Assembly: GCA_964567585.1 (NCBI GenBank)
Contig: CAZMND010000002.1
Span: 7,592-71,591, forward strand
DNA length: 64,000 nucleotides
Source of the DNA: an uncultured Lachnospiraceae bacterium
GTDB taxonomy: Bacteria; Bacillota; Clostridia; Lachnospirales; Lachnospiraceae
Direction: 5' to 3'
Shown here: positions 3,056 to 30,065 of the stretch, in pieces
Layout of the letters: each line of letters starts with the position of its first letter
How positions within the stretch are numbered: position 1 is the stretch's first letter
Program-made: the position numbers and the translations under genes
The notes under the pieces: model-generated
The model's input: only the letters and a program-made list of their open reading frames with translations
The model's database searches: none
What the model was told of the DNA's origin: nothing

Positions 3056-3069
3056 AAAAAGGAGATTAG

Positions 3070-3318
<249 letters not shown>

Positions 3319-5476: not shown

Positions 5477-5480
<4 letters not shown>
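4155..5480 (+). CDS. F1 ATPase alpha-subunit-like protein, 441 aa (C-terminal helical domain about 55 aa shorter than canonical)
   Basis: P-loop GDKKSGKT (canonical GDRQTGKT) at 4650-4673. Also VICIYVAI, ILDDLKHHA, PGRDAYPSDIFYTHSRLLE, ISITDGQLVL and LSVSRLGGAVQ (canonical SVSRVGGAAQ, the Arg-finger region). Confidence 0.9.
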
Positions 5481-7907
<2,427 letters not shown>

Positions 7908-7918
<11 letters not shown>

Positions 7919-8438
7919 TGTTTTGGAAGCTATTATGCAATTACGTGTATTTATTCTCGTATCAGGAATTGGAATTGTTTTAAGCGGAGTATATCTTTTG
8001 TTCCGCTGCAGAAAATTTGGTTGGAACAGAAACAATATAAAACTGATAGGCTTTTTCTACAATTTAAGTGTGTGGGACACTGTTGGTATGGCCTGCGGTT
8101 TTTTGAAAATATTCCTTGTATTTTCCATTCTGATAACTACGGGAAAAGTTGAAATTATTCATATGATTATATTTTGTATACTGGAAGTCTGTTATATTGT
8201 CCACAGACGCAGTATCAAAGGAATTATGCTGGATTTAGTGCTTAGTATGGTTTCATTGATTGTAATGAATATTATGAATATGTTACACCATTATTTGAAC
8301 GAAATTGTTTATGACGTTAAAGTGGCAATTGTCGTGTGGCTGCTTGGAGTGTTACTTTGTCTCTACGGCATTTATGATTTGATGCATTGTGCCAAAACAG
8401 TGCTTGAAACTAGGAAGGAAACTGAAGCTAAAGTATGA
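7908..8438 (+). CDS. Polytopic (~5 TM) membrane protein of unknown function, translationally coupled to epsilon
   Basis: ATG at 7908 is preceded by GAGGAGGAA (7892-7900) and overlaps the epsilon stop by 11 nt. The hydrophobic segments include one with buried polar residues (GKVEIIHMIIFCILEVCYIVHRR). Confidence 0.7.
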
Positions 8439-9184
8439 ATAAAATGAATAAACCTCAAAAAGACAAAAAAAAACATATGAACAGCTTTATAAAGGAAAAC
8501 AGACAGTGGTTTATTTTACTCGGAGCAATCTTCTTGTTTTTAATCTTGATGGTTGTTATCGTATGGTATTCAGGAACGCAGAAAAACTGGAATCCGGGAG
8601 TAGAAACCTACCGATATGTTATGGGTGTGAAGGTTCCGTATTCGCAGGATATGAAGCTGATACATACAGATGCAGGAACTTTGATTGAAGATAAGGATTC
8701 TGTTTATTCGGACGGAACACCGATTTTCAGCGAAGAGGATGAACAACTTATTTTACCTGTAAGTATGGGGTTAATGCGCCCATTTCATGAGGATTCATTA
8801 AAAAGAGTTAACTATTTTGCAACCTTAAAGAAATTAGGCGATGTTATTTCAATTGATCAAAATGGCTATACAACGGAAGTTAGCGAAGGTTTTTTGTATG
8901 ATGGAGATGGCACATATATTTTCATGGAAGATATGACATTGACGATCGGTAACAGTACCTATTATGCACATTCGTTATCTTATGCCAAGGTTTTCTACAG
9001 AGATGCAGTGGAAATTTATAATATAACAACGGGTGATTATCAGTATATTGATATTTCCAATTCGGATACGGTGGCGTTATCTGCCAATGGTTACAGTATT
9101 GATTTAGGTACAGGTGTTATGACAATCGGAGATACACAAAGAATATTATTTGCAGATATTGAGGCAATGGGAGTATTACAATGA
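8435..9184 (+). CDS. Single-pass (N-in) membrane protein with ~200-aa extracytoplasmic domain, unknown function
   Basis: ATGA overlap with the upstream stop. Lys-rich N-terminus, then one TM (WFILLGAIFLFLILMVVIVWY). Confidence 0.7.
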   Translation: MNKMNKPQKDKKKHMNSFIKENRQWFILLGAIFLFLILMVVIVWYSGTQKNWNPGVETYRYVMGVKVPYSQDMKLIHTDAGTLIEDKDSVYSDGTPIFSEEDEQLILPVSMGLMRPFHEDSLKRVNYFATLKKLGDVISIDQNGYTTEVSEGFLYDGDGTYIFMEDMTLTIGNSTYYAHSLSYAKVFYRDAVEIYNITTGDYQYIDISNSDTVALSANGYSIDLGTGVMTIGDTQRILFADIEAMGVLQ

Positions 9185-12100
9185 TTCTGAAAAAGAACAA
9201 AGAAACTGTCAAAAAAGTAAATAAAAAAGCACTGGACAAAAGAAATTATTTTTTCTTTGCCTTGGTGGGTGTTATTTTAATCGGAATTCTTATGATTCTT
9301 CAGACGAGGTTTAAAGAATACTTCCGTTTGAATAATGATGGATTTGCCGTTGTCAGCAATACAGTTACGGAATACTTGAGTATTGATCCAAACGAAGAAG
9401 ACGTTGAGAAAATTATTTCGCTTAAGTCTTTTGACGCCTTGGAATATCTTTATACACAGGGAGGAAAAATTTTCCTTGGTGAGGATAAAAAGGTAGAAGT
9501 TGATACTTCGTATCCTGTGTATATGAATCAGGGCGCGGTATTACAACTGATAGAGGGAACCGGTATCCTGTATGATGAGGATTACGAAAGGGTGGAAACA
9601 TATCAGGGGCTCTATATTGAGGGCGGTTATGCGTATAACGTGGACGGACAAAAAGCCGATCCTGTGAGATATCTGTTCCTCGGTATGAATAATGGTAACT
9701 TTGTTAACTTTGATGAAATTACTTATCACTTAAAAAATGAAGAATATGATATTAATGAAAACTCTCTGGTTCACTTTGAAGCAGATTATTTTTCATATTA
9801 TGAATATGAAAAAGGGGAACTTGTTTATAAATACTGTGTAAGTGTAAATGATTCATTCAAACTTAAGGTTGGAGAAACACAGTATACTTATGATGAATTA
9901 TTAAAACTTTTGGGATTAAGAAGTGAATATGCTTCGTTTGATGGCATTGAAAAAGATGAAAATGTCGAAGAAGATTTTACTGTTAATGACGATGTCGAGA
10001 TGGATGAAGATGAGGATGATACGGTAGAAGCCCAAGTGGAAAAACCGAAAGCACAGCCGTCTACGCCGCCTACACCTCCGGCACCGAGTCAAGGAAAAGA
10101 AAATACGAATTCGTCACCGGGAGTCAGACCGGAAGGAATTGTGAGACCGGGAAGCGGTTCGGGAAATACGGAAGATAAGACAGATGAGGTTGAAAATTAT
10201 ATACAGCCGAATGTTATTATCAACAGTGTAAGTGCAAAGGTGTACCGTATCGAAATCGATGCAACCGTATATGATCCGGCAAACCGTATCGATACAACCA
10301 GATTTGTCCGTTTTGAAGTATATGAAGTGGATAAAGACGGTAATGAGCAGTTGGCTATGAGAAGTTACAGAAGAGGAGAAGGACAGAATGTTACGACTCT
10401 AGGCGGCGGTGCAATTAAGCCGGAAACGACATATCGTATCTATGGCGACTATACGTATTTTGACCAGTATGACAAAGAACAATATGTAGATTTGGGTTCA
10501 TATGAAATTACAACGGGAAGTTTTTCTGATTTAACCCAAATTTCATTAACACATAAACAAGGTACCAGTTATCACAATAGAATTGAAGTTGTGGATTTTG
10601 GTTACAAACCGGATGAATCTGATGATGAATTAATATATGGTATAAGCCAATATGGCGGTATCAGATTTGTTGTTAAAAACAAAACTACAGGTGCTGAAGT
10701 TACTTCAAGAATACTGACAGTAGGTGAAACAAACAGCTTCAAGGCCAACAACGGTGTAATTTTAAACAGTCTCAGCACTCTGAAAGCCAAAACAGAATAT
10801 CAGTATGAATTTGAAATTGAAGACTATTTTGGAAATAAAATTACATTGGAAAATGCAATTGGATATGCGATGACAAGTAATCATGCTCCAAGTGCAACAA
10901 TTATTGAAAAAAATAATGAAATTGGAAGAATGGTATTAACATTATCCATTGAGGATGTTGATGCTGCGGCAGTTCCGTCTAAAAGCACGACGGATGCGGC
11001 GGATGCTTGTGATGTTTATGTAATTCTGACAAAAGATGATCCTTCGCGTTTGGAAAAGTATACAACCTTCGAAGAGATGGAAGAAGCAGGTGTTATTACT
11101 GCGTATAAGAAGCTTGATGTGGGTGAATATACATATACACCATATGATTCAGAAACAGGAACAATTTCTGCCACAAATTTAGATATAGAATTTACAAATT
11201 TGAGATTGGGAGAAAAATTCTTTGTTACCGTGTATGGTGATTATGATTTAACCAACCAGAAAGGTCCGCAGTATTTCAAACCAATAGGTCAGTCATCCTT
11301 TAAAACGACTGATTTGAACTCGCTTGGTAAAATCTACGTTACAGTAGATTTTGATACAGACAGACTTACATATAAATCATTGCCAATGAGCTTCCATTTA
11401 AATAACGAAGCTACAAGTCCGCAGTTAGAAACGCTTATAACAGGTATGAAAATTGATGTTATAAGAGATGGCGGAGTAGGTGATGATGCAATTATTGATG
11501 CGACTTTTGGATTTACGGACAGTACGTTGGCTGCCGATGGTAGCACAAAGATAATTGATATGTTTAAAAATACGGCGGTAACATATCTTGCCGATAATTT
11601 GCAGAGTATGACAGAATATCAGCTGAAGGCGGTTATATATGCAAAATATCAGGATGAGGAATATGAAATTACACCGCAGTTGTCAAACTATGCATTTAAA
11701 ACCCTTCGTAAACCGGCGGAAGTAATTGTGGAAGATTTACTTTTTGCGGCAGGAACCTTGGTTTTTGACGTAAAAGTAGAAGATCCTGACGAAACTGTTA
11801 TCGGTATTTCGGGAGATAAGGTGGTAGTCCAACTGTATACAAGAGAAGGTGAGTTTGTTAAAACAACCCGTGTGGAAAAAGGTCTGGAAGAATGGCAGAC
11901 GGTTACCTTTGATAATTTGGACCCGGGTAAAAAATACCAAATTCGATTTGTGGCGGTAGAATATAACGAAGGTTATACAAATGCAAGCTATGAGTCTAAC
12001 AAAATATTAAAAACAGTAGATGTTAATGAATCCATGAGTATGGATGGAACAATAAAATTGCAGTCTGTTAGCGAAATAGACGGTGATGTGGAGCATTACC

Positions 12101-15100
12101 AAGCATTGGTTAAGGCTACACTTAGTGACCCGGACCATTATCTGACAAGAAAGGATGCAATTCCTTACTACATCAGAGTGGAAAAAGATGGTGTAATTGT
12201 CGAAGATACGGCATATGATTTGTCGCAGGAAGAAGAAGCTGCTGTCTACGAAAAGAAACATAGCTACATTGTTGACAAAGGCGAACATACATATAAATTT
12301 ACAATGTATGTGATTGTAAGTGACAGATTCGTAGAATTGGATACACTTACATTTACAACAGAAGAAATTATTCAGGGATTTGATACTGCATATGAAATGA
12401 TAAAGCTTCTTCAGGACAATCCGGATGGTAAATATGTTGCAACAAACAGTTTTGTACTCAATTCCAATGAATGGAATTTCAAAGATGTTGTGGACCCGGG
12501 TGATGTGGAAGCAATGCCGGAAGCAGATCTTGAGGCTATGGGAGATGGCTTATCAGGGGCCAATATTGTTAATATTTTCAATGGTAAAATTGATTTCCAA
12601 GGTTTTACCTTGACACATAACTATTATGAAGATTCCCAAAGAATGATTACTAATATTGGTTCCCAAGGTGTTATTGAAAATTTTGTGTATTCGGTTAAAT
12701 GTTTAAATGCTACCAGAGTTTATGATGATGGTGTACTTTGCTATCGAAATTTTGGTACGATTCGTGACATTTATATGAAATACCATGGAGGATATTATTT
12801 AAATAATGAATATTTTGGTATTTTATGTCGAATTAATTCTTCAACAGGTATAATTGAAAAATTTGTTATTGAGAATATTCCTGACGAAGGTTTTTCAAGT
12901 TTTAGTGCATACAAAAATGCCGGAATTGTGGCAAATACAAATTATGGCATTGTGCGTTATGGATATGCATATGGAGAAAATGTTGTTACTACTGAAGTAA
13001 ACCAAATTACATCAAGAGATATCGGTGGTTTGGTGGGTGTTAATGCTACACTTGGTAATATGTATAGTTTATATAGTTTACTAAATGTGGATGAAACCAG
13101 CTTGCGTAAGGACAGCGATTATACATATGGTGGTGATTATGGTGCAGTTTGTGGACGTTCAACGGGCAAACTTCACAATCTTTATTCTGCAAAAGACAGT
13201 TTTATTATAGAAAGTAAAAATAGTGAAGCGGATGGTTATCATCATAGTCAGGTTGTTGGTCGGAGAACAAGACCAACTAACTCGAATGTTTATTATTATA
13301 GTAATAAATCATATCCGGATGCGGAAGCTTCAAAAGTATATAGTGTTGGCATTAATGAGTTATATGATGTAACATGGCAAAAAAATATGTTGACGGATAA
13401 TTTTGATGTGAGTCTTGTAGAGGTTGGATATTATCCACACATTGAACTTTCTTCGGATTTGCCGGAACAGGAGTATATTGCATTACCTACAAGGGATATG
13501 TCACAACAAGTTGAAATATCTAGAGCGACTGTAATGGAATATGGTGTTTTAGCGGATGGAAAGACCGATTGTGCAACAGTAGAATTTGTATTTTCAAATA
13601 GAGATGGCGTGAATATTATCGGTCTTGAAATTACAGACCTTGATGTAGAACTTGATTTAACAACAGCATCTTATGAAGATGGTTATACTACAATTTGGGG
13701 TGTGGTTTCCAATCCGAGAAGCTTTTATTCGGAATACGAGATACAGAGCGTAAAATATTATCGAAACAGTAATCTTTCTGCCAATGCAGTAAACTATCTT
13801 TTAAAGGCAGATTTTTGCCGTAAAATTTATACTACAGATGACTGGTATGATTATATGGTTGACCGCAATAGTGCGGAGGAATACGAAAACATAAAATTAG
13901 AAGCTGATTTGGATTTCCAAGGTATTAAAGCGGATGATATTATGGTTAAATATGCCTTTGACCGTATTTTTGACGGCAATGGACATACGATTTCCAACAT
14001 TGACTTACAATATGGATTTAATGCAAAAAATAATTCTACTATAAGACGATTGTTTAAGGGAGACATTCAGTACAGTAGTACCATTAAGAATTTATATATT
14101 GAAAATTATAAAGCAGGTGGAAAATATTATTATGCATCAAAAGGTAAAACATATATTTCCACATCAGCAGGTGTTTTTGGTACGGTTTATGGTGTGTTAG
14201 AAAACATACATGTAAAAGATGTGGAACTTTATACCTACAGTTATGCAGGCGGTTTGGCGGCATATCTGGCAGCTTCCGGTGAAGCAAAGGATTGTTCAGT
14301 AACAAATCTTAATTTAGTGTATTGTGATCCGAATGATACTAATGTTGACAGTTTTATCGGTGGTCTTGTTGGTCGAATGAATGAATCAAGACTGAGTCAT
14401 TGCTATACACAAAATGTAAATATTACTGTTGAAGAGACAAAATCAACTTATGGTATAGGTGGTGTTGTTGGCTATGCAGTAAACAGTGTGATTGACACAG
14501 CTTATGCGGAAGGTGAAATTGTCAGTCGAGCACAAAAAGTTGGTGGTGTTGTAGGACATTACTATTGTACAAATGCTGCTGTTGCATGTATGAAAAATAT
14601 GTATGCAAAGGTGGATATAATTTGTTATACAGATATTGTTGGTGGTTTGGTCGGTCAGAATAATATTACCCAGGAAAGAGTCAGTGCAACAAATAACTTT
14701 TCAGGTATTGCTTTTGGAAACGTTTATCTTTCCAACATTGATTCTGTGAACTGTTCACAGACCATTGGTGCAAATTTAGGTAAGACTGCAACCTTCTATG
14801 GCTACGAAGAGCAGCTTGTCAATGGTATATCCGGTGTAGGCTATGAAGGAAAAGAAGAGTATATCAGAGGGCTGGCAAGTTTTGACGAACTGATGAATGA
14901 TGCAGAAAATACATATTTTAATGTGATTGAATTTGAAAATGTATATGATGTATCCGGTGCAGAAGACGGTTATTTGCCGAAAATGTACTATGAAGACCAA
15001 AGTAAAGGTTTGCTTCCAAATCAAACAGATTTAGTATTAAATGAACTAAGGGAACTGGATATTGAAGTAACAAATGTTCTTCATAATGATGTAAACAGGC

Positions 15101-18100
15101 TTGTAACTGTAGAACTTCGAAATCCGAATAATTACAAAATTACAGCAATCAATATCAGAGATTTAAAATATCATTTTGTTGATATGACAAAAGGAAGTGC
15201 TCATTATGGAGATGCGGTTTCTATTGATGTGGCATCGGATTATGATAGAGGATATACGCGTATTTATCTTCAGTATGATGAAGAGCGAAATCAGGAATAT
15301 TTTTTAGACAGTTATGTTTTGGACAAAATCTCGTTCTATGCTGTTGAAAACAGTGGATTAGATAAAAATCTTACATCAGATAGCATAACAACTAATTTAA
15401 AAGATATTGAGATTTATTCAAGAATTAATGTAATGTTATGTATGGATATTCCGAATGTTTCGGCATGGCAGAATATTGCAAATAGGGAAAATAATGGTCA
15501 TACCTATGAAAATTACCGTTTGACAGGCGATTTGGACTTCACTTATGAAAAACCTGCAACGAATTTGAAACTTGGACGATTGATTTCGGATAATGGTGAA
15601 AGAACTATCCGAAATGTTAATATCAAAGGTGCAGATATGCATTTGATTTCAAGATTAAATAGTGGTATATCCGGTGTTAATTTTGTTAATTGTACGGTTA
15701 CATCATCGACAGTAAACTGTATTGGACTTATTGGTGTATCGAATGGTTCAATAATTAATTGTGATTTTGAAAAAATTACAATTAATCCACAGACCAATAA
15801 CCGTGATGAAGTTGGTATTATCGGTCACTGTAATGGTGGTACATATAAAAATATTACCTTAAAAGATATTACAATTAATGCCACACAAACAAATATCGAT
15901 TATGTTGGTGGTTTTGCAGGTAAAGTTCAAGATGAAAGTTTTTACGAAAATATCGCGGCTTCAAATATCAAGGTAACAGGAACTGCGAATTATGTCGGCG
16001 GTTTGGCGGGCTATATTGAAACAGCAAATGTGAAAGATATAGATATCAGTGATATTGTAGTGGATGGAAAAGCAAACTACGTAGGTGGCTTTAGTGGACT
16101 ACTTGGTGCTAATAGTAACTATAGAGATCAAGTTGCCTCTAATATAAGAATTACAGGAACGGCTACTTATGATGCAGAGGGAAGATGTGTATCCTCTACA
16201 ACCAATATTTATGGAAATAAATATGTAGGCGGATTTGTAGGATATATTTGTGAAAAAGTTGGTACAGCATATGAAGTTTCACGAATTAATCCGAATCTGT
16301 TAGTAGATCAGGTGGTTGTAGAAGGGCTTGATTGCTTCGGTGGTGCTATTGGTTGGTCCTATACCAATATGTATCATTTAACAGTAAGTAATAGTTTAGT
16401 AAAAACAAGAAGCACTATGGATTCGGCAACAGTTTATGCATCATGTGGCGGTATCATAGGTGAAACGACATATTCAGCCACTAGGGCACTTTTGACAGAT
16501 AATGTTTTGATTGATGTTACAAATACCAATAATGTAGGTGGCCTTGTGGGTGCATATAGCAAAGCTACCATGCAACAGTGTTTTGCTAAAAACAGCCATA
16601 TCAATGCTTCAAAAACCAATAAATGTACAGAAACATTGATAAATGTTGGTGGTCTTATAGGATGTTATGAAAATTCAATGTATTATAACGGAGTTCTCAA
16701 TACCAATATTTATGCTCCGGATTATAGTAATGTCGGTGGCCTTGTAGGTCGTTTATCTACATCCCTTGCCAATAGTCATTATGTTGGCCGTTCCTTCTAT
16801 TTGGCTGATTATGATAAAGAAGCAGAATTAGAATATTTAGCAGATACATTGAATCGATATACGGCAGCTGCATCAGATGATTATTATGTTGTAGGTTTTA
16901 CAAACGTTGGTGGTCTTGTAGGTATGCAAAACAGTGGTTATGTAAGAGAAAATTATTCTAATGCTAATGTTATTGCAGCCAATACACAGATAGCCGGTGG
17001 TATGGTTGGTATGTACTGTAATGAGTATATTGCAAGTGTTTCTGCAGGAAAAACGAATTATACATATTCTGTAACCGGTATGTATAATAACTATTTTGCA
17101 GGAAATGTAACGGCTGTTAATGGTTATGCAGGAGGGGCAATTGGTAGGACAGGACTTCTATATAAGGGTCTGGGTACTGATGCAAATGGAACTGTTTCAT
17201 TGACAGGCTATAATGGTAGCCGTATCAAAGGTGTAAACTCTAATACCAACGAAGTAGATAAAACATACGGTAATATTGTATTTGCTGATACAATTACCGG
17301 TGGAAGTGGCAAAACAGGTGCTTTTGCAGCTGATGACACCAAGTTTGTATTTATTGGTCGAGATAACCGTATTTGGGATAAAACTATTTTAAATGATGGT
17401 ACAGGTAATGTTTATGCAGCTTCAATAACGAAGGAAGACGGAGCGTATGCGTATAATTACTGGAATCCTGATAAAACAAAGCTTGCTTCAGGTTTCCCTA
17501 GTAAATTGAATGAGATGCAAGTTTTTGAAAGCACAGATCTTGATGGTAGTTATGTTGTAAATACTAAATATAACAGAGCAAGTAACTTCTACAGTTCTAT
17601 TGGTTGGACATTGGCATATACAGGAACGGCATCTTATGGTTATGTAAACCGTAATACATACTGGGGAGCATCCGTAGGTGATATCCCGGATGGTTCCGGC
17701 GGCACAAAGGGGCTTAGAAACAGATATGATCCAAATGTATATGATTCCGGCTCATACCTGCCGATTATCCGTGAAGCTACTACAACAATGTATAACCAGG
17801 ATAATCTTGTTCAGAAGCAGTTTACTTTAAGCAGACTGCCGTTGCCAAGAGATAAGGCTATGGCACGTACACTTAGTTTGACTTCAAATTATGGTTTGAG
17901 ACAGATAGAAGCTACTTACGGTACCTTGTATGCATCGGATATTGATAAAATCAACGTGGAATTCTCTGATGATTTGGTAGATGCAGGATATTATGTATTA
18001 AAATCAGGTGATACTGTAATTGCAAAAGAAGTAATTAAAGACAGGGTAACAACATTTAGTTATGCATTTGATGAAAACATAACCTTCGAATATGGTTTCT

Positions 18101-19611
18101 TAAAAGATACGAGTTTATCGGAAGATACTATTTTGAAGGGAAGTAATCTTGAGGAACTGGAAAGCCTTCTTTTCGGTGTGAATGATATTAAGACAGATAT
18201 TATGGTATACAGAAATGATTACTATTATATTTCGGAGGAAGGTCTTGTTTCATCAGCAGGCACATGGGCAGGCGACTTTGTTACATTGATGAATGGTAAA
18301 GCATTAGATGCAAGTGGAAATATCTGGAATGTAGAAAGCCGTAAGAAAGTAGGAAGTGTTACACAAACAGTGAAACAAAGTGAGGATAATCCACTTTGGA
18401 CATTCAAATACGGAAGTATTGATATAAAAACCTATGCGAAGTTCAGTGCAATTGAATCGGAATATGATACTATCAACAGAAATGCACAGATTTTTGTACT
18501 GAATGAACAGTTATTCGCTGTGGATGGTTCGCTTGAAACAAGAAAGACGGATATTTTGATTTACAAACTGAATGGCGTTCAATACCAGACAGTTCTGGGT
18601 AATGATGGTATGATGGTTGATATGATGCAGGATGATTGGAATATTCCGGAAGACGTGGACAATCAGGCGATTGTTCGTATGAGTAATACGTTAAATGCAT
18701 CGGTTCCATATGTTCTTGTTGAATACAATAACGGCGGAATTATCGGATATAATTACGCAACAGGCGATATCCTTTTTGATAACAGTATCGAAAAAGAAGT
18801 TTCTCTGTTAGATTATGCGGTTGAATTCTTTGGTGAGAAGAAAGATTCACAGTATGCAAATATCAGCAATACTTATTCGGCAAATGCTAATTTGAGTGAA
18901 ATGATTCATTCAGCTGCTGATTTGGAAAAAATTGTCGGTAACAGTTCGGGTGAACTTGTAACTGATAACAGTACCGGAGAAAATACAGGTTCTACGGTAG
19001 GTGCGCAGGCGATGGCGGATGCAAATAATGCACAGGCAGGAGAAGGTGTACAAGGAAGCAGTGATGCACTGAATGGCCAGGGTTCTAATGAAGATGATTT
19101 TGCAGGCGTAAAGGATGATGAAGAAGGTACGTTTGTAAGTACACAGGAAACAGAACCTGAAAATGCTACAGAAAATGAAAGTACTTCTTCTGAAACATCA
19201 ACCGAAATCGTGGAAGATGAAAACACCAAGGATTCGGATGATACTAATGTAGATAATACGGAAGAAGGTAATTCGTCTGCGAATAATCCAAATCCGAGCG
19301 AACGTCCGGAAAATCCGGGTGAAAATCAGGAAGTCGGAGCCGGAGAATATATGACTGTTTACAACAATGAAACAGGCGTATATGAAATTGTCAGTGTGGC
19401 AGAGTATCTCACTAAGGATGCGTATATTTCCGAAAATCATAAACTGGGTATTAAAGATTTATCTAAAGAAGTATCCAGTGGATATGCGGTATCGACTATT
19501 GATGTAAATCAGGAAAGAGGTATTATTATGTACATTATTCCGATTTTCATTATCTTTGGTATTGCAGGCGCAATTATTATTTATGTAAAACGTAAAGAGC
19601 GTAAAGCATAA
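9181..19611 (+). CDS. Giant (3,476 aa) surface protein: N-terminal TM, acidic/Pro-rich stalk, six FN3-like modules, three beta-helix cassettes with GLUG-like motifs, C-terminal globular region, acidic low-complexity stalk, C-terminal TM plus KRKERKA tail
   Basis: A single uninterrupted 10.4-kb ORF with an ATGA overlap with the upstream gene. TM segments at ~9247-9303 and ~19519-19587. Motifs were read directly (see the repeat feature and findings). Confidence 0.9.
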   Translation: MILKKNKETVKKVNKKALDKRNYFFFALVGVILIGILMILQTRFKEYFRLNNDGFAVVSNTVTEYLSIDPNEEDVEKIISLKSFDALEYLYTQGGKIFLGEDKKVEVDTSYPVYMNQGAVLQLIEGTGILYDEDYERVETYQGLYIEGGYAYNVDGQKADPVRYLFLGMNNGNFVNFDEITYHLKNEEYDINENSLVHFEADYFSYYEYEKGELVYKYCVSVNDSFKLKVGETQYTYDELLKLLGLRSEYASFDGIEKDENVEEDFTVNDDVEMDEDEDDTVEAQVEKPKAQPSTPPTPPAPSQGKENTNSSPGVRPEGIVRPGSGSGNTEDKTDEVENYIQPNVIINSVSAKVYRIEIDATVYDPANRIDTTRFVRFEVYEVDKDGNEQLAMRSYRRGEGQNVTTLGGGAIKPETTYRIYGDYTYFDQYDKEQYVDLGSYEITTGSFSDLTQISLTHKQGTSYHNRIEVVDFGYKPDESDDELIYGISQYGGIRFVVKNKTTGAEVTSRILTVGETNSFKANNGVILNSLSTLKAKTEYQYEFEIEDYFGNKITLENAIGYAMTSNHAPSATIIEKNNEIGRMVLTLSIEDVDAAAVPSKSTTDAADACDVYVILTKDDPSRLEKYTTFEEMEEAGVITAYKKLDVGEYTYTPYDSETGTISATNLDIEFTNLRLGEKFFVTVYGDYDLTNQKGPQYFKPIGQSSFKTTDLNSLGKIYVTVDFDTDRLTYKSLPMSFHLNNEATSPQLETLITGMKIDVIRDGGVGDDAIIDATFGFTDSTLAADGSTKIIDMFKNTAVTYLADNLQSMTEYQLKAVIYAKYQDEEYEITPQLSNYAFKTLRKPAEVIVEDLLFAAGTLVFDVKVEDPDETVIGISGDKVVVQLYTREGEFVKTTRVEKGLEEWQTVTFDNLDPGKKYQIRFVAVEYNEGYTNASYESNKILKTVDVNESMSMDGTIKLQSVSEIDGDVEHYQALVKATLSDPDHYLTRKDAIPYYIRVEKDGVIVEDTAYDLSQEEEAAVYEKKHSYIVDKGEHTYKFTMYVIVSDRFVELDTLTFTTEEIIQGFDTAYEMIKLLQDNPDGKYVATNSFVLNSNEWNFKDVVDPGDVEAMPEADLEAMGDGLSGANIVNIFNGKIDFQGFTLTHNYYEDSQRMITNIGSQGVIENFVYSVKCLNATRVYDDGVLCYRNFGTIRDIYMKYHGGYYLNNEYFGILCRINSSTGIIEKFVIENIPDEGFSSFSAYKNAGIVANTNYGIVRYGYAYGENVVTTEVNQITSRDIGGLVGVNATLGNMYSLYSLLNVDETSLRKDSDYTYGGDYGAVCGRSTGKLHNLYSAKDSFIIESKNSEADGYHHSQVVGRRTRPTNSNVYYYSNKSYPDAEASKVYSVGINELYDVTWQKNMLTDNFDVSLVEVGYYPHIELSSDLPEQEYIALPTRDMSQQVEISRATVMEYGVLADGKTDCATVEFVFSNRDGVNIIGLEITDLDVELDLTTASYEDGYTTIWGVVSNPRSFYSEYEIQSVKYYRNSNLSANAVNYLLKADFCRKIYTTDDWYDYMVDRNSAEEYENIKLEADLDFQGIKADDIMVKYAFDRIFDGNGHTISNIDLQYGFNAKNNSTIRRLFKGDIQYSSTIKNLYIENYKAGGKYYYASKGKTYISTSAGVFGTVYGVLENIHVKDVELYTYSYAGGLAAYLAASGEAKDCSVTNLNLVYCDPNDTNVDSFIGGLVGRMNESRLSHCYTQNVNITVEETKSTYGIGGVVGYAVNSVIDTAYAEGEIVSRAQKVGGVVGHYYCTNAAVACMKNMYAKVDIICYTDIVGGLVGQNNITQERVSATNNFSGIAFGNVYLSNIDSVNCSQTIGANLGKTATFYGYEEQLVNGISGVGYEGKEEYIRGLASFDELMNDAENTYFNVIEFENVYDVSGAEDGYLPKMYYEDQSKGLLPNQTDLVLNELRELDIEVTNVLHNDVNRLVTVELRNPNNYKITAINIRDLKYHFVDMTKGSAHYGDAVSIDVASDYDRGYTRIYLQYDEERNQEYFLDSYVLDKISFYAVENSGLDKNLTSDSITTNLKDIEIYSRINVMLCMDIPNVSAWQNIANRENNGHTYENYRLTGDLDFTYEKPATNLKLGRLISDNGERTIRNVNIKGADMHLISRLNSGISGVNFVNCTVTSSTVNCIGLIGVSNGSIINCDFEKITINPQTNNRDEVGIIGHCNGGTYKNITLKDITINATQTNIDYVGGFAGKVQDESFYENIAASNIKVTGTANYVGGLAGYIETANVKDIDISDIVVDGKANYVGGFSGLLGANSNYRDQVASNIRITGTATYDAEGRCVSSTTNIYGNKYVGGFVGYICEKVGTAYEVSRINPNLLVDQVVVEGLDCFGGAIGWSYTNMYHLTVSNSLVKTRSTMDSATVYASCGGIIGETTYSATRALLTDNVLIDVTNTNNVGGLVGAYSKATMQQCFAKNSHINASKTNKCTETLINVGGLIGCYENSMYYNGVLNTNIYAPDYSNVGGLVGRLSTSLANSHYVGRSFYLADYDKEAELEYLADTLNRYTAAASDDYYVVGFTNVGGLVGMQNSGYVRENYSNANVIAANTQIAGGMVGMYCNEYIASVSAGKTNYTYSVTGMYNNYFAGNVTAVNGYAGGAIGRTGLLYKGLGTDANGTVSLTGYNGSRIKGVNSNTNEVDKTYGNIVFADTITGGSGKTGAFAADDTKFVFIGRDNRIWDKTILNDGTGNVYAASITKEDGAYAYNYWNPDKTKLASGFPSKLNEMQVFESTDLDGSYVVNTKYNRASNFYSSIGWTLAYTGTASYGYVNRNTYWGASVGDIPDGSGGTKGLRNRYDPNVYDSGSYLPIIREATTTMYNQDNLVQKQFTLSRLPLPRDKAMARTLSLTSNYGLRQIEATYGTLYASDIDKINVEFSDDLVDAGYYVLKSGDTVIAKEVIKDRVTTFSYAFDENITFEYGFLKDTSLSEDTILKGSNLEELESLLFGVNDIKTDIMVYRNDYYYISEEGLVSSAGTWAGDFVTLMNGKALDASGNIWNVESRKKVGSVTQTVKQSEDNPLWTFKYGSIDIKTYAKFSAIESEYDTINRNAQIFVLNEQLFAVDGSLETRKTDILIYKLNGVQYQTVLGNDGMMVDMMQDDWNIPEDVDNQAIVRMSNTLNASVPYVLVEYNNGGIIGYNYATGDILFDNSIEKEVSLLDYAVEFFGEKKDSQYANISNTYSANANLSEMIHSAADLEKIVGNSSGELVTDNSTGENTGSTVGAQAMADANNAQAGEGVQGSSDALNGQGSNEDDFAGVKDDEEGTFVSTQETEPENATENESTSSETSTEIVEDENTKDSDDTNVDNTEEGNSSANNPNPSERPENPGENQEVGAGEYMTVYNNETGVYEIVSVAEYLTKDAYISENHKLGIKDLSKEVSSGYAVSTIDVNQERGIIMYIIPIFIIFGIAGAIIIYVKRKERKA
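10201..12366 (+). repeat. Six tandem FN3/Ig-like modules within the giant protein
   Basis: Recurrent ~105-145 aa units end in strand signatures TTYRIYGDYTY, TEYQYEFEIEDY, KFFVTVYGDYDL, TEYQLKAVIYAKY, KKYQIRFVAVEY and HTYKFTMYVIV, followed by h-x-h-T-T. Confidence 0.6.
12379..17150 (+). repeat. Three beta-helix-type super-repeats carrying at least 18 GGLVG/GGhhG (GLUG-like) motifs within the giant protein
   Basis: Cassette entry signatures are FNGKIDFQGFTLTHN (12577-12621), DLDFQG...FDGNGHTISNIDL (~13900-14010) and GDLDFTYEK...SDNGERTIRNVNI (~15520-15625). Motifs include IGGLVGVN, FIGGLVGRMN, VGGVVGHY, VGGLVGQN, YVGGFAGK, YVGGLAGY, YVGGFSGL, YVGGFVGY, NVGGLVGAY, NVGGLIGCY, NVGGLVGRL, NVGGLVGMQ, AGGMVGMY and YAGGAIGR. 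Confidence 0.7.
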
Positions 19612-19619
19612 AACTAAAG

Positions 19620-19651
19620 GAGTCGTAATTTGATGATTACGGCTCTTTTTA
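19620..19651 (+). terminator. Rho-independent terminator closing the giant-protein/F1-like operon
   Basis: Stem GAGTCGTAAT / ATTACGGCTC (10 bp, one G-U pair), 6-nt loop, then TTTTT. It starts 9 nt after the stop codon. Confidence 0.8.
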
Positions 19652-19767
19652 TGCATATCGCACAAAAAGAGAAAAAAAACTTGTGAAATATGTACACTTA
19701 TAACGTTGTGTTTTTATATAAAATTCTTTATTCTTATTGTGTATGTTTAAGTACAGAAGGAGAACTT

Positions 19768-21936
19768 ATGGGTAAAGGTTTTTTTAAGAAAGAAAAGCTA
19801 GTTAAATTTTTCAATAGAACATCGTTGATTTGGCATATGGTATTGGCTGCTTTTTTATGTTTGTTTATTGAATCCTGTTCAAGACATTCCGTGAAAGCTG
19901 CTTTTACATTTTTGAAAGAAACACCATGGATTTTCTTATATAATTCTCTGATTATTTATGTGACATTTTTTGTTGTATATCTTTTCAGAAAAAGAATTGC
20001 AATGCGTGTTACGCTTTCGGTTTTATGGTGTTTTTTGGGAATTATAAATGGTTGTATTTTGGCAAAAAGAGTAACGCCTTTTAGTTATACGGATTTAAAG
20101 CTGATAGGTGACTTGTTTGCAATGAATAGTACATATTTTACAGCGACAGAATGTGTATTGGTTATTATTTTGGTTGCGATTGTTGTTGCATTAAATGTAT
20201 TGCTTTATATAAAAGCACCAAAATTCAAAGGAAAGATTAATAAGTTGATTTCGCTGACTGTAATCGGTTCGTGTTTTATGTGGCTTCCGATGGTGACTGA
20301 AGCAGCGGTAAACAAAGAAGTTTTATCAACTTATTTTGAAAATATTGCATTGGGATATGAAGAATATGGATTTGTATATGGTTTTTCCACCAGTGTTGTC
20401 GGTACGGGAATGAGCAGACCGGCCAATTACAGTGAAGAAATCATTGTGGAAATTCAGGATTCCATTCAGGTAAATGAAACGGCTGAAACGGAAAAACTAC
20501 CAAATGTTATTGTGGTTTTATTAGAGTCTTTTATTGATCCGACAGAAGTAAATTATTTGGATATTGAAGGGGAAGCGATACCAAATTTCCGTTATTTAGA
20601 AGAAAATTTCACAACCGGTTATATGACGGTTCCGGTTGTCGGTGCAGGTACTGCAAATACAGAATTTGAAGTGCTTACAGGTATGAGTATGCGTTTCTTC
20701 GGTACGGGAGAATATCCATATAAAACAATTTTGAAGGAAACCGATTGTGAAAGTATTGCCGGCAATCTTGGAAAACTGGGCTATTCAACTCATGTAGTAC
20801 ACAATAATACAGCAAAATTTTATAGCCGTAATAATGCTTTTTCCATGATGGGATTTGATTCCTTTGTCAGCAAAGAATTTATGATTGTAGATGAATACAA
20901 CACATTGGGTACATGGGCCGCTGACAATTTGTTACTGGAACAGATTGATAATGTAATGAATAAAAGTGAAAATCAGCAGGATTTGGTGTATTGTATTACC
21001 GTTCAGGGGCACGGTGCATATCCGACAGAACCGGTTTTTGAAGAACCGGAATTTAAGGTTACGGGTGCGCCGACAGATGAACTCAATTATTCATGGGAAT
21101 ACTATGTAAATGAACTTCACTATGTTGATGAGTTTATTGGTAATCTTGTAGCGCAGATGGAAGCAAGAGATGAAGAAACCTTGATTGTGCTTTGGGGTGA
21201 TCATTTGCCGACTATGGGACTTAATGAAACGGATATGGCCTCAGGCAGTACATTCAAAACCAAATATGTTACCTGGAATAACTTCGGTTTACCTAAAAAA
21301 GACGCGGATTTAACTGCGTATCAGTTACTTGCTTATGTGACAGGACAGGCAAATATTCATGAAGGTACAATTTTTAAATATCATCAGGATTATTTGAATG
21401 CAGGCTATGCAATTGATAATGATATTTATTTAAATGGTCTTGAAAACTTACAGTATGACCTTTTATATGGTAAGAGATATTCTTATGCCGGTGAGGATTT
21501 ATACCCTGCCAGCGATTTAGAACTCGGTGTGAATGATATAATAATTGATTCCGTGGCGGTTATCGGAAAAGGTTTATATGTTTATGGTGAAAACTTTACG
21601 GCATGGACGAAAGTATACATTAATGGTGAAAAGTGTGCGACAAAGTTTATTTCGCCGGAATGTCTTGCTATCAGCTTGAATAAATACGATATCAACGATG
21701 GGGATATCATTAATGCGAACGTTGTAGGTACAGGTACCATTTTACGTGCTTCAGAAGATTACATCTTCACGCATTATGTAGAAGATGTGAATAATCCATC
21801 TATGATTGCAAATGAAGCATTGGCTGATTATCTGATTGAAGAAGATATTGTATTACATGAAGTTATATTGGATGATGAAGAAGAGTTAACAGAACCGCAC
21901 GAAGATGAGAGTCTTGATATAGAAATTACAGAATAA
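19768..21936 (+). CDS. LTA-synthase/sulfatase-family membrane protein (LtaS-like) with extra C-terminal beta-sandwich domain and acidic tail
   Basis: The ATG at 19768 has RBS GAAGGAG, so the 19690 start is unlikely. Multi-TM N-terminus. Sulfatase-fold motifs NVIVVLLESF, GAGTANTEFEVLTG and WGDHLP. About 90 aa of IPT/TIG-like sequence, then an Asp/Glu-rich tail. Confidence 0.75.
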   Translation: MGKGFFKKEKLVKFFNRTSLIWHMVLAAFLCLFIESCSRHSVKAAFTFLKETPWIFLYNSLIIYVTFFVVYLFRKRIAMRVTLSVLWCFLGIINGCILAKRVTPFSYTDLKLIGDLFAMNSTYFTATECVLVIILVAIVVALNVLLYIKAPKFKGKINKLISLTVIGSCFMWLPMVTEAAVNKEVLSTYFENIALGYEEYGFVYGFSTSVVGTGMSRPANYSEEIIVEIQDSIQVNETAETEKLPNVIVVLLESFIDPTEVNYLDIEGEAIPNFRYLEENFTTGYMTVPVVGAGTANTEFEVLTGMSMRFFGTGEYPYKTILKETDCESIAGNLGKLGYSTHVVHNNTAKFYSRNNAFSMMGFDSFVSKEFMIVDEYNTLGTWAADNLLLEQIDNVMNKSENQQDLVYCITVQGHGAYPTEPVFEEPEFKVTGAPTDELNYSWEYYVNELHYVDEFIGNLVAQMEARDEETLIVLWGDHLPTMGLNETDMASGSTFKTKYVTWNNFGLPKKDADLTAYQLLAYVTGQANIHEGTIFKYHQDYLNAGYAIDNDIYLNGLENLQYDLLYGKRYSYAGEDLYPASDLELGVNDIIIDSVAVIGKGLYVYGENFTAWTKVYINGEKCATKFISPECLAISLNKYDINDGDIINANVVGTGTILRASEDYIFTHYVEDVNNPSMIANEALADYLIEEDIVLHEVILDDEEELTEPHEDESLDIEITE

Positions 21937-21946
21937 AGAAATGAAA

Positions 21947-21985
21947 AAAGAGAAAGATTACATTGTAATACTTTCTCTTTTTTTG
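21947..21985 (+). terminator. Rho-independent terminator after the LtaS-like gene
   Basis: Perfect 10-bp stem AAAGAGAAAG / CTTTCTCTTT, 14-nt loop, then TTTTT. Confidence 0.8.
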
Positions 21986-22020
21986 TATGATAAATATATC
22001 AAAAGAGTGAGGTAAAAGTG

Positions 22021-22194
22021 ATGTCAATATGTGATACCTGTATCAATTATGAATATGATGAAGATTATGAATGTTATACCTGTATGATGGATTTGGATGA
22101 AGATGAATATGAAAAATTTATTACAAACCGAAACACATCCTGTCCATATTATCAGAATGGGGATGAATATCTGGTAGTACGTAAGCAAATGTAA
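22021..22194 (+). CDS. Small (57 aa) Cys-rich acidic protein, putative zinc-ribbon-like, absent from the ORF track (below its length cutoff)
   Basis: ATG preceded by GAGGT. Translation: MSICDTCINYEYDEDYECYTCMMDLDEDEYEKFITNRNTSCPYYQNGDEYLVVRKQM. CxxC, CxxC and one further Cys. It is co-oriented with all neighbours. Confidence 0.55.
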   Translation: MSICDTCINYEYDEDYECYTCMMDLDEDEYEKFITNRNTSCPYYQNGDEYLVVRKQM

Positions 22195-22226
22195 ATAGGC
22201 GTAGGATTGGAAGTGGGGCAAAGACT

Positions 22227-23531
22227 ATGAGAATGTATGACTTAATTATGAAAAAAAGAAATGGTGGCGTGCTTTCTAAGGAAGAAATTGATTTTATGAT
22301 TTCGGAATATACAGATGGTAAAATACCGGATTATCAGATGTCGGCTATGATGATGGCAATTTATTTTGTTGGGATGAACGATGAAGAAACACTCCATTTG
22401 ACTATGGCAATGGCACATAGTGGTGATATGCTTGATTTGTCAGCAATTCATGGAATTAAAGTAGACAAGCACAGCACAGGTGGTGTGGGAGACAAAACCT
22501 CTCTGGCATTGACTCCGATGGTGGCTGCGTGTGGCTTATCCGTTGCAAAAATGAGCGGCAGAGGTCTTGGTCACACCGGTGGTACAATTGATAAACTGGA
22601 AAGCTTTGAAGGCTTCAGAACAGATATTCCAACGGAGAAATTCATAGAAAATGTTAATACAATCGGTGTTTCCATTATGGGTCAGACTGCCAATCTGGCA
22701 CCGGCGGATAAGAAACTTTATGCTCTGCGCGATGTAACAGCAACGGTTGATAATATGTCTTTAATTGCGTCCTCCATTATGAGTAAAAAGCTTGCGGCAG
22801 GAAGCGATGCCATTGTTTTGGATGTAAAGACCGGAAGCGGTGCATTTATGAAAGAAAAAGAAGATGCAACCTTGCTTGCAAAGGCTATGGTTAATATCGG
22901 AAAAATGGCAGGACGTAAGACTGTTGCAATTATTACGGATATGGATCAGCCCCTTGGTTTCGCAGTAGGAAATGCATTGGAAGTAAAAGAAGCCATAGAT
23001 ACTTTGCAAGGCAGGGGCCCTGAAGATTTTACAAAACTCTGTTATACATTGGGAGCGTATATGCTTATGGCAGGTGAAATTGCACCGGACGTTCAAAGTG
23101 CAAAAGCGATGATAAAAGAAGCCGTAGACAGTGGTAAAGCTTTTGAAAAATTTGTTGAGTTTATTTTGGCTCAGGGTGGAAATGCCGAGCAGGCACACAA
23201 TCCTAAGCTTTTGCCAAAAGCAGCTTTGGAAGAAGAAGTTTTTACCGAAACGGAAGGCTACATTGAAAAAATCGTATGTGATGAAGTGGGCGTTTGTTCA
23301 TTAATTCTTGGCGGTGGACGAGAAAACAAAGAGAGTGAAATTGATTTATCCGTTGGACTGATTTTGCATAAAAAAGTTGGGGATTATGTTTCGAAGGATA
23401 CTCCGATTGCGACGATTTACGGCAATTCTGAAGTGAAAATTAAAGAAGCAAAGGAAAGACTCTTAAAGGCATATACATTTACAGATAAAGAAGTCATAAA
23501 AAGAGAACTGATTCAAGGAATTATTGAATAA
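22227..23531 (+). CDS. pdp: Pyrimidine-nucleoside (thymidine) phosphorylase
   Basis: Full-length match to the family pattern: MRMYDLI-KKR-G..L..EEI.F.I..Y..G.IPDYQMSA..MAI.F.GM, KHSTGGVGDKTSL, SGRGLGHTGGTIDKLES. Confidence 0.9.
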   Translation: MRMYDLIMKKRNGGVLSKEEIDFMISEYTDGKIPDYQMSAMMMAIYFVGMNDEETLHLTMAMAHSGDMLDLSAIHGIKVDKHSTGGVGDKTSLALTPMVAACGLSVAKMSGRGLGHTGGTIDKLESFEGFRTDIPTEKFIENVNTIGVSIMGQTANLAPADKKLYALRDVTATVDNMSLIASSIMSKKLAAGSDAIVLDVKTGSGAFMKEKEDATLLAKAMVNIGKMAGRKTVAIITDMDQPLGFAVGNALEVKEAIDTLQGRGPEDFTKLCYTLGAYMLMAGEIAPDVQSAKAMIKEAVDSGKAFEKFVEFILAQGGNAEQAHNPKLLPKAALEEEVFTETEGYIEKIVCDEVGVCSLILGGGRENKESEIDLSVGLILHKKVGDYVSKDTPIATIYGNSEVKIKEAKERLLKAYTFTDKEVIKRELIQGIIE

Positions 23532-29435: not shown

Positions 29436-30065
29436 ATGCACACATTAAAAAGAATCGGCGTTTTTTTATTTGTTTTCGGAATTGCTTTTATGGCCGGGAT
29501 TTACAGCGAAAAGTTTATGAACTCTTTTTATCCTCACAGATATGAAAATGAGATAAACCCAATATCTGTTTCGAAGCCGGATAATAGTGAAGAAAACATA
29601 AAACCTGCCATACAGAGTGAAGAACTAATCACTGCGGATACAAAGCTTATTATTATAGAACACAATTTGGAGTCCGGGGAAGAAATTAAAGGCGAAAATG
29701 TGATGCCGACAAAATATATAGGACTTAACAGGGAGCGTTTTATAGAAGAAATGGAAATCTACGAAATATCTCCGGCGTTGTCAGATATAAAAAAAGGATT
29801 TAGAAGTCTTGCGGTTGTAAGTTTTTCGAGTAAAGAAATACAACTTCAGAAGAATTATTCGAACAGTGCGATTAAAATGCGTTTTTATATGGTGTCGAAA
29901 GATAATAAACTTGTTGTATATTACGAGGATATGGAAACCGTCTTTTTGACAACAGATATTTCAATGGAAAATCTCCCGGAAAATGTCAGACTGGAAATTT
30001 TAAATAAAAAGTACTTTGAATCGGAAGAAGAATTATATAATTTTCTTGAGTCTTATTCAAGTTAG
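29436..30065 (+). CDS. Membrane-anchored protein, possibly with a BofC C-terminal-like domain
   Basis: N-terminal TM. The C-terminal FYMVSKDNKLVVYYEDMETVFLTTDISMENLPENVRLEILNKKYFESEEELYNFLESYSS resembles the BofC_C pattern. Tentative. Confidence 0.35.
   Translation: MHTLKRIGVFLFVFGIAFMAGIYSEKFMNSFYPHRYENEINPISVSKPDNSEENIKPAIQSEELITADTKLIIIEHNLESGEEIKGENVMPTKYIGLNRERFIEEMEIYEISPALSDIKKGFRSLAVVSFSSKEIQLQKNYSNSAIKMRFYMVSKDNKLVVYYEDMETVFLTTDISMENLPENVRLEILNKKYFESEEELYNFLESYSS

Follow-up and report, generated by a model that had tools for sequence, protein, structure and literature searches.

In a 64,000-nucleotide (nt) stretch of an uncultured Lachnospiraceae genome (assembly GCA_964567585.1, contig CAZMND010000002.1, positions 7,592 to 71,591 of the forward strand; this whole stretch is referred to below as the window), a protein of 3,476 amino acids (aa) is encoded by the last gene of an 11-gene operon that also encodes an F-type-like ATPase. 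We consider, with a probability of roughly 0.55, that this giant protein is the extracellular working part of an ATPase machine that is F-type-derived but uncoupled from ions. We infer that the giant is not a free-standing adhesin but one part of an 11-gene machine. The genes of the operon overlap or abut one another and are arranged as follows.

1 to 1457, forward strand: 3' end (about the last 482 codons) of the first operon gene, whose frame is open to the window start.
1472 to 3055, forward strand: 527-aa N-terminally anchored extracellular protein with a single transmembrane (TM) segment at aa 16-34, without family match and with conserved synteny.
3073 to 3318, forward strand: 81-aa F-type c-subunit-like hairpin protein (Pfam ATP-synt_C, E-value 1.4e-8; NCBIfam 41.7 bits against a cut-off of 71).
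3343 to 4152, forward strand: 269-aa b-like stalk protein with an N-terminal TM at aa 3-21, a coiled coil and a conserved C-terminal domain, at the b/delta position of the gene order.
4155 to 5480, forward strand: 441-aa F1 alpha-like subunit (ATP-synt_ab, E-value 8e-72; 425.6 bits against the atpA cut-off of 554).
5477 to 6259, forward strand: 260-aa F1 gamma-like subunit, very divergent (Pfam ATP-synt, E-value 1.1e-23; NCBIfam 62 bits against 194).
6268 to 7635, forward strand: 455-aa F1 beta-like catalytic subunit (ATP-synt_ab, E-value 2.7e-64; 448.1 bits against the atpD cut-off of 462.85).
7619 to 7918, forward strand: 99-aa epsilon-like small subunit, of beta-sandwich length only, directly after beta and without Pfam match.
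7908 to 8438, forward strand: membrane protein with four TM peaks (4-TM protein), 176 aa as called in relatives, in an open reading frame (ORF) open from 7809.
8435 to 9184, forward strand: 249-aa N-terminally anchored protein with a TM at aa 25-43, an ectodomain of about 200 aa and no stalk, always immediately upstream of the giant gene.
9181 to 19611, forward strand: giant protein gene, 3,476 aa, whose only stop is at the ORF end.
19616 to 19649, forward strand: terminator-like hairpin followed by a U-run (-18.9 kcal/mol, z = -4.83; 0 of 200 shuffles fold as well).

The original prediction, made from the sequence of the window, placed the giant directly after a motor-like ATPase. Membership in the same conserved operon is confirmed but direct adjacency is not, as three small genes, namely the epsilon-like, 4-TM and 249-aa genes, all translationally coupled, separate the giant from the beta gene, which ends at 7635. 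Concerning the 4-TM gene, the long ORF (7809-8438) overlaps the epsilon-like gene by about 110 nt, and the gene callers at loci L024 to L029 start it at about 7908, with products of 171-179 aa and a short overlap. Downstream of the giant, the hairpin at 19616-19649 appears from its folding to mark the operon end; a consensus terminator scan of 19000-22400 did not report it.

A locus scan with one genome per species returned 21 loci, all of them from Lachnospiraceae except one evidently mislabelled record. The operon is found in Butyrivibrio and Roseburia, as well as in the cultured Kineothrix alysoides KNHs209, Lachnospiraceae bacterium G11 and AM93-12TA. In every locus with enough upstream sequence (17/17), the giant follows the complete set of genes from the c-like to the 249-aa protein, in an unchanged order; three shorter loci display this order up to the contig limit, and 6 further loci were retrieved via the c subunit. 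The conserved order is thus: collagen-like protein of about 2,100 aa, 527-aa protein, c-like, b-like, alpha, gamma, beta, epsilon-like, 4-TM, 249-aa and giant. The first gene is syntenic in 15 loci beyond L024 to L029, and rlmH precedes it on contigs with an identical c-like protein. Across the loci, alpha and beta are 62-92% identical whereas the terminal regions of the giant are 24-50% identical, which is the pattern expected of a conserved motor and a fast-evolving exposed partner. The giant is obligately associated, within one operon, with an F-type-like ATPase devoid of an ion site and with three further N-terminally anchored extracellular proteins. Among these loci is one record titled 'Thermoguttaceae bacterium' (L015, JBQKHF010000004.1; Planctomycetota). 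Its operon is complete and its alpha subunit shares 92% identity with that of the window, so that mislabelling or contamination of the assembly is probable. Another 'Thermoguttaceae' name occurs among the members of the c-subunit cluster.

Judged from its subunits, the ATPase of the operon is F-type-derived and is not expected to act as an ion-coupled synthase. This reading is based on four features. The second TM of the c-like protein shows no Asp or Glu in any of the 18 orthologues (18/18). When compared with its best PDB match, the Acetobacterium woodii c2 subunit (4bem), the Na+-site residues Q, E and T are replaced by L, T and L, while the GxGxGxG helix and the RNPE loop are retained. Moreover, no protein of the operon matches ATP-synt_A or OSCP in Pfam or NCBIfam, so that subunits a and delta are both missing from it. 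Finally, alpha, beta, gamma and c all score below the canonical curated cut-offs. The 4-TM protein was considered as a cryptic a subunit, which is unsupported given that it has no family match and no conserved TM Arg in the alignment. The cut-offs of other F1-like families are not reached either: scores against the mycoplasma families are 315, 391, 373 and 373 bits for cut-offs of 520, 570, 600 and 850 respectively, and against the N-ATPase (alt_F1F0) alpha, beta and c equivalogs 348, 407 and 15.6 bits for cut-offs of 750, 752 and 131.

The catalytic machinery is nevertheless preserved. The Walker A/B and GERxRE motifs of the ATPase are intact. The beta-like subunit displays Walker A and Walker B (LLFVDN), and the alpha-like subunit, which is without the first 14 or so and the last 70 or so positions of the canonical alpha profile, has GDKKSGKT as Walker A. 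Given these intact motifs and the conservation of alpha and beta, the ATPase is probably active. Against the PDB, the beta-like subunit lies at about the same distance from canonical beta subunits (382-324 bits) as from the Mycoplasma mobile G1-ATPase beta (321 bits, 9io5), and the best gamma match of the gamma-like subunit reaches 39.7 bits. The profile of the epsilon-like protein gives sub-threshold, in-register matches to the N-domains of ATP synthase epsilon chains (E-values 0.3-0.6). In the case of the b-like protein, the profile finds only generic coiled coils in the PDB, and its identity as b rests on architecture and gene position. The gene order is c-b-(delta)-alpha-gamma-beta-epsilon with delta missing.

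One alternative is that the operon encodes an ordinary F1Fo ATP synthase and that the giant is an unrelated, co-transcribed adhesin. Databases do label these subunits 'F0F1 ATP synthase subunit alpha/beta/C', and the order c-b-alpha-gamma-beta-epsilon is the classical one. However, an ordinary synthase fits neither the c subunits without carboxylate, nor the missing a and delta, nor the sub-cut-off scores of all subunits, and an unrelated neighbour does not fit a synteny that is kept even where the giant falls to 24% identity. Coincidental adjacency is effectively excluded, as far as sequences can tell, by the synteny together with the dead ion site.

The giant ORF itself is genuine, since 3,476 open codons in DNA of 36% G+C are far beyond chance and the orthologues are collinear. 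Its ATG shares the sequence ATGA with the stop of the preceding gene, and GGGAG lies 8 nt upstream. The N-terminus reads MILKKNKETVKKVNKKALDKRN-YFFFALVGVILIGILMIL-QTRF and the C-terminus ERG-IIMYIIPIFIIFGIAGAIIIYV-KRKERKA. Only two segments are strongly hydrophobic, at aa 23-42 (TM1) and aa 3444-3469 (TM2); on a Kyte-Doolittle scan with 19-aa windows they form the only two strong peaks (aa 20-45, 2.56; aa 3445-3471, 2.76), while the third-best window is at 1.61 with charged residues inside. The original prediction had described a protein with a TM at both ends and quoted two stretches, YFFFALVGVILIGILMILQ, preceded by a Lys-rich tail, and IIMYIIPIFIIFGIAGAIIIYV, with KRKERKA after it; both are found exactly as quoted. 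The parts of the protein, as delimited here, are listed below.

9181 to 9306, forward strand: Lys-rich cytoplasmic tail (aa 1-22) and TM1 or signal anchor (aa 23-42), from hydropathy, AlphaFold2 (AF2) and family statistics.
9307 to 9930, forward strand: membrane-proximal all-beta N-domain (aa 43-250), the family hallmark, from AF2 and as the region most widely matched by the family.
9931 to 10194, forward strand: acidic/Pro-rich linker 1 (aa 251-338), with 25 D/E against 7 K/R, conservation 0.22 and predicted local distance difference test (pLDDT) below 50.
10195 to 12420, forward strand: beta-rich repeat array (aa 339-1080), presumed Ig/Fn3-like from a weak fn3 match, collinear across the family.
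12421 to 17280, forward strand: three diverged modules (aa 1081-2700) with 15 GG[LFVAM]xG (GLUG-type) motifs, presumed beta-helices from motif positions and inter-module similarity.
17908 to 18777, forward strand: C-terminal beta core (aa ~2910-3199), propeller-like, with AF2 block-mean pLDDT mostly 70-94 and weak Foldseek matches.
18931 to 19356, forward strand: acidic low-complexity linker 2 (aa 3251-3392), with 34 D/E against 3 K/R, disordered in AF2 and of low conservation.
19357 to 19608, forward strand: juxtamembrane mini-domain (VYNxxTGxYE...SEN), TM2 (aa 3444-3469) and KRKERKA, from alignment, hydropathy and AF2.

The conservation of this two-ended architecture was examined in the family of the giant. 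An exhaustive phmmer search with aa 1-1080 as query against 1.84 billion representatives gave 323 clusters (50% identity) at E-values up to 1e-3, of which 130 are found at up to 1e-30. The members are mostly 2,800-4,500 aa long and match from the extreme N-terminus. Among 111 representatives of at least 2,800 aa, a hydrophobic segment is present at the N-terminus in 109 and at the C-terminus, with a basic tail, in 108, and both TMs, whose conservation in relatives had been named as a check on the proposed anchoring, are kept in 106 of the 111; internal TM-like peaks are almost absent. Furthermore, the 15 residues before TM1 carry a net charge of at least +2 in 100/112 family members and the 12 residues after TM2 do so in 99/112, which fits a topology with both N- and C-terminus inside. 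The median uncharged run is 18 residues at the N-terminal segment and 21 at the C-terminal one (112 members). The closest orthologue, at the metagenome locus L001, has near-identical TMs in a protein that is 61-68% identical as a whole.

We next consider whether TM1 could be a cleaved Sec signal peptide, in which case the giant would be held by TM2 alone and project as a fibril instead of a loop. In many relatives the n-region is indeed short (MKK) and the hydrophobic run covers 16 residues, a length like that of a signal peptide, and a (-3,-1)-compatible site of some kind occurs after TM1 in 37/112 members. In the giant, however, the hydrophobic run extends over 18-20 residues and is followed by LQ/TRF without a small residue at -1. 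A QTRF-like motif usually stands directly after TM1 in the family, and the closest relatives conserve it; three positions in or beside TM1 (G30, L37 and F44) are invariant in a full-length alignment of the giant with nine relatives (35-50% identity, collinear). With a conservation of 0.42, TM1 is also about as conserved as the ectodomain, which is unusual for a signal peptide. Moreover, the AF2 model of aa 1-300 (25-sequence alignment, mean pLDDT 85.8) shows a TM1 helix (aa 20-42) that is continuous with, and abuts, the beta domain (aa 45-243; block-mean pLDDT 93-98), with no signal-peptide c-region. Both the heuristic (-3,-1) scan and the AF2 helix hence speak against cleavage. N-terminal cleavage of the giant is unlikely on this evidence, and single-ended anchoring as a fibril is an improbable reading.

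Sorting to the wall is the other way in which two-ended membrane anchoring could fail. Here the C-terminal TM, the tail and the VYNxxTGxYE motif would be read by a sortase-like or exosortase-like enzyme, leading to wall attachment or release. Indeed, a hydrophobic segment followed by a basic tail has a shape common to sortase substrates although it is not diagnostic alone, the arrangement of motif, hydrophobic segment and basic tail looks tripartite, and G3447 and Y3451 are invariant. On the other hand, regular-expression searches of the giant found no LPxT[GASN], NPxTG, HExxH or lipobox. At E-values up to 0.1, Pfam gave no SLH, CW_binding or sortase-signal match (fn3 alone, E-value 0.093) and NCBIfam, C-terminal sorting-signal models included, gave nothing. 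These searches agree with the original prediction, which had reported no LPXTG, SLH, choline-binding or HExxH feature. NPxTG is seen in 4/111 relatives, where it forms part of the VYNxxTGxYE motif, about 45 aa upstream of the TM and within a segment modelled as a folded hairpin and helix, and the giant has NNETG at this position; by its placement, the NPxTG of the relatives does not look like a sortase signal in the usual position. No sortase-like gene was detected in the operon with Pfam or NCBIfam either, and we regard a cryptic sorting signal as highly improbable. Everything testable in silico, that is the conserved TMs, the flanking charges, the scarcity of cleavage sites and the AF2 helix, thus supports an N-terminal signal anchor and membrane anchoring at both ends, as originally proposed.

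Regarding the ectodomain, a Foldseek search of the N-domain model against the PDB retrieved no relative at E-values up to 1e-3, and the model of this family hallmark is thus apparently without a solved structural counterpart. In the full-length alignment, conservation varies little over most of the protein (0.35-0.49); it peaks in the N-domain and the juxtamembrane mini-domain and is lowest in the two linkers (0.19-0.22). Acidic low-complexity stretches near both ends had been placed at 9955-10200 and 18940-19345; they are real and their limits are close to these. As both linkers are the least conserved parts and the C-terminal one is predicted to be disordered, they fit flexible stalks. Plain self-BLAST of the giant found no internal repeats, and chunked BLAST found a weak module duplication only. 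GLUG (PF07581) matches 5/10 close homologues (best E-value 1.8e-7) and Peptidase_M26_N matches 1/10, whereas the giant itself has no PF07581 match despite its 15 GG[LFVAM]xG motifs; it also has no peptidase domain in Pfam or NCBIfam. With Foldseek, the C-terminal core gives weak matches to WD40/propeller proteins (best E-value 1.3e-4). After linker 2, AF2 places a small domain of a hairpin and a helix, and then a long TM helix (aa 3442-3475). A G-x3-Y pair (G3447 and Y3451; window 19510-19530) at the outer edge of TM2 is invariant in the alignment, and the VYNxxTGxYE...SEN mini-domain lies at window 19357-19420 (aa ~3393-3412). From their sequences, this edge and the mini-domain could be a docking or processing site.

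The giant was also compared with other collections. Searches against PHROGs and against PDB sequences and profiles gave no usable match, its C-terminal 787 aa found only three fragmentary matches in an index of 5.8 billion sequences, and the N-domain profile found only 14 fragments. One of the fragments from the N-domain search (P0214, 427 aa, metagenomic) has a precomputed Pfam Cohesin (PF00963) match, which hints that some members of the family may carry cellulosome-type modules. RefSeq and UniProt label the family 'hypothetical protein', for instance WP_031391420.1 of K. alysoides.

The giant is not the only large surface protein of the operon. The window starts inside the first gene, whose product of about 2,100 aa is the second very large surface protein encoded there. 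Its orthologues at L024 to L029 (e.g. L024:2058-8384) are about 2,080-2,108 aa long, match Pfam Collagen (PF01391) and have one TM only, at the N-terminus; the protein is laid out as a TM, a juxtamembrane domain of about 200 aa, a collagen-like (GXY)~20 stalk and beta-rich repeats. In the 527-aa protein, 22 uninterrupted triplets with Gly at period 3 (GGN GGA GGA GGS ...) are encoded at nt 2219-2416. This GGX repeat could, on its sequence, form a collagen-like or polyglycine-II-type stalk. The 527-aa, b-like, 4-TM and 249-aa proteins have no family match in Pfam or NCBIfam. The three long N-anchored proteins share one plan, a juxtamembrane domain of about 200 aa followed by an extended segment of 65-90 aa at aa ~250-340, which is acidic/Pro-rich in the giant, GGX in the 527-aa protein and collagen-like GXY in the protein of about 2,100 aa. 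At 0.29-0.35 nm per residue, such segments would by our own estimate measure about 20-30 nm, the scale of a Gram-positive wall, and the linkers would then cross the cell wall.

In the proposed machine, the giant would be inserted via a signal anchor at the N-terminus, left uncleaved, and a stop-transfer helix at the C-terminus; its two ends would lie in the cytoplasm and about 3,400 residues outside as a loop. Along this loop would follow the beta domain on the membrane, the acidic/Pro linker, the beta array, the GLUG modules, the propeller-like core, the acidic linker 2 and the mini-domain. The core of the machine would consist of an alpha3beta3-gamma-epsilon-like head, a b-like stalk and a c-like ring whose ion path has been lost. 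ATP hydrolysis in the cytoplasmic head would move the c-like ring, the 4-TM protein and the single-pass anchors, and this movement in the membrane would be passed to the wall-spanning giant, the collagen-like protein of about 2,100 aa and the 527-aa protein. At the cell surface, this could result in movement, in tension, or in binding and release. While the data show the architecture, the family, the conservation of both TMs, the operon with its conservation, the lost ion site and the intact catalytic motifs, we infer the non-cleavage of TM1, the wall-spanning stalks, the physical association of the proteins and their mechanical coupling. In a more specific version, which we put forward tentatively and at somewhat below even odds, the carboxylate-free c-ring acts as a mechanical rotor or lever, and ATP powers conformational work by a double-stapled loop of about 3,500 residues, together with collagen-like stalks that span the peptidoglycan of walled Lachnospiraceae. 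Such a rotor or lever might serve surface motility, catch-and-release adhesion or the winching of bound particles.

Several points weigh against a machine of this kind. Operon membership is no proof of contact between the giant and the ATPase or of mechanical coupling, and a rotary head would have to move single-pass anchors without an a subunit. With a thick peptidoglycan wall, leg movement in the style of mycoplasmas is hard to picture. The non-cleavage of TM1 is drawn from the heuristic (-3,-1) scan and the AF2 helix, and the AF2 model of the C-terminal part (aa 2700-3476) is poor overall, with a mean pLDDT of 54. A common docking module was sought in the N-domains of the four anchored operon proteins, and BLASTP and hhalign found no significant homology between them. 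Finally, the hint that a canonical synthase exists besides the ATPase of the operon is indirect and comes only from the 62 rumen butyrivibrio genomes, all reported to have a and delta subunits (PMC4478896).

The operon association would be explained equally well if the ATPase served the giant instead of driving it. It would then act much like the FliI/FliJ-type ATPases of type III export, which are relatives of F1, and power, for the three giant exported proteins, their secretion, insertion into the membrane, threading through the wall or quality control; the giant would be a static adhesin or fibril. The operon does encode three exceptionally long exported proteins, moving 3,400 residues over the membrane and the wall is demanding, and the FliI/SctN families too are matched by alpha and beta (E-values around 1e-50 to 1e-59). 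However, the head is heteromeric and comes with a c-like ring and a b-like stalk, which together make up a full rotary architecture and not that of an export-gate ATPase. Furthermore, the exported proteins have ordinary Sec-type signal anchors, and no export-gate homologue was found in the operon with Pfam or NCBIfam. We consider an assembly or export helper unlikely, though a contender to be kept in mind, and retain the ATP-driven surface machine as the preferred reading.

How does this putative machine relate to known systems? In comparison with the canonical F1Fo enzyme, the operon shares with the Na+ F-ATPase of A. woodii the order c-b-alpha-gamma-beta-epsilon, the GxGxGxG helix and RNPE loop of c, and the catalytic motifs. 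It differs in that a, delta and I are missing, the c site is L/T/L, alpha is truncated at both ends and five extra genes for envelope proteins are present. As to giant Gram-positive surface proteins, GLUG/M26 proteins (IgA1 protease, Zmp) among them, double TM anchoring and an obligatory ATPase operon are not features of these. The giant resembles GLUG/M26 proteins in its GGxxG repeats and in being very large, beta-rich and fast-evolving; unlike them, it has no HExxH, metalloprotease domain or LPXTG and remains below the GLUG threshold.

The closest parallels in function come from mycoplasmas. The Type 3 'F1-like X0' ATPase is required for the antibody-cleavage function of MIB-MIP and co-purifies with it (PMC12994834). 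Its cluster of seven genes includes a 12-TM protein, a small protein of the cytoplasm and a large protein that bears a signal peptide plus two TMs at its C-terminus, and no c subunit (PMC12994834). In both systems, genes for alpha-, beta-, gamma- and epsilon-like subunits are joined by genes for membrane proteins of no assigned family, one of them large, mostly extracellular and anchored in the membrane; both have no recognisable ion path, and in mycoplasma these subunits are supernumerary and the ATPase is required for the function of the surface proteins. In contrast, the Lachnospiraceae operon has 11 genes in another order, with c-like and b-like subunits and a 4-TM protein, and in its large proteins the anchor is an N-terminal TM, alone or paired with a C-terminal one. 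Alpha and beta of the window are also below the MSC_0619 and MSC_0618 cut-offs (315 against 520 and 391 against 570 bits). In addition, mycoplasma hosts are wall-less and use genetic code 4, whereas the host of the window is walled and spore-forming, as indicated by the sporulation genes that the window contains.

In Mycoplasma mobile, the Type 2 G1-ATPase powers gliding via Gli349, which has an N-terminal TM, and Gli521, which has a C-terminal TM (PMC7052211). As in the window, an intracellular F1-derived ATPase is found with surface proteins of 3,000-4,700 aa that have terminal TMs, and in M. mobile the energy of ATP is transmitted across the membrane to extracellular 'legs', with Gli349, Gli521 and Gli123 as the surface proteins (PMC7052211; PMC8406192). 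The giants of M. mobile are however encoded at a separate locus and each anchored at one end, the ATPase forms dimer chains in the cytoplasm, and there is no cell wall. The beta subunit of the window reaches 373 bits against MMOB1670 (cut-off 850), alpha is also below the cut-off of the MMOB1660 family, and the giant is likened to the Gli proteins by size and by the description of their anchoring. The operon can hence be called analogous to the mycoplasma F1-like systems in how it would work, while its subunits score outside their families. Such ATPases have been described as specific to mycoplasmas (Beven 2012, PMC3369863; Berlureau 2026, PMC12994834), and our literature search of open-access papers found no description of such a system in Lachnospiraceae or Clostridia.

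Beyond the operon, 19690-21936 encodes an LtaS-type sulfatase-domain protein (5 TM and PF00884) with a very acidic C-terminal extension. It was considered as a further part of the system and rejected, as the terminator precedes the gene and as it follows the giant only in the window and in the closest relative, L001. Three ORFs without Pfam match, at 25985-27244 (419 aa), 27742-29370 (542 aa) and 29436-30065 (209 aa), lie among the housekeeping and sporulation genes yabP, yqfD, phoH and ybeY. All sizeable ORFs of the window are on the forward strand, and the GC skew stays positive throughout (0.14-0.28 per 2 kb), as is typical of the leading strand in a Firmicute.

Together, these data point to an undescribed ATP-driven surface machine of a type so far reported only from wall-less mycoplasmas. 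A comparable association of an ATPase with giant proteins is present here in walled, spore-forming Lachnospiraceae, which are dominant in the gut and rumen, across genera and in cultured strains, and this operon keeps features that mycoplasmas have lost, namely the c-ring, the b-stalk and the classical gene order. Given the ordinary 'F0F1 ATP synthase' annotation of its subunits, metabolic reconstructions may miscount ATP synthases in these bacteria. The repurposing of rotary ATPases as mechanical motors also becomes testable in a genetically more conventional group. If the proposed machine exists, it would give Gram-positive surfaces a new mode of presenting, and perhaps actuating, giant proteins that are anchored at both ends independently of sortase and S-layer, and would be an independent, wall-compatible counterpart of the gliding and MIB-MIP motors of mycoplasmas.

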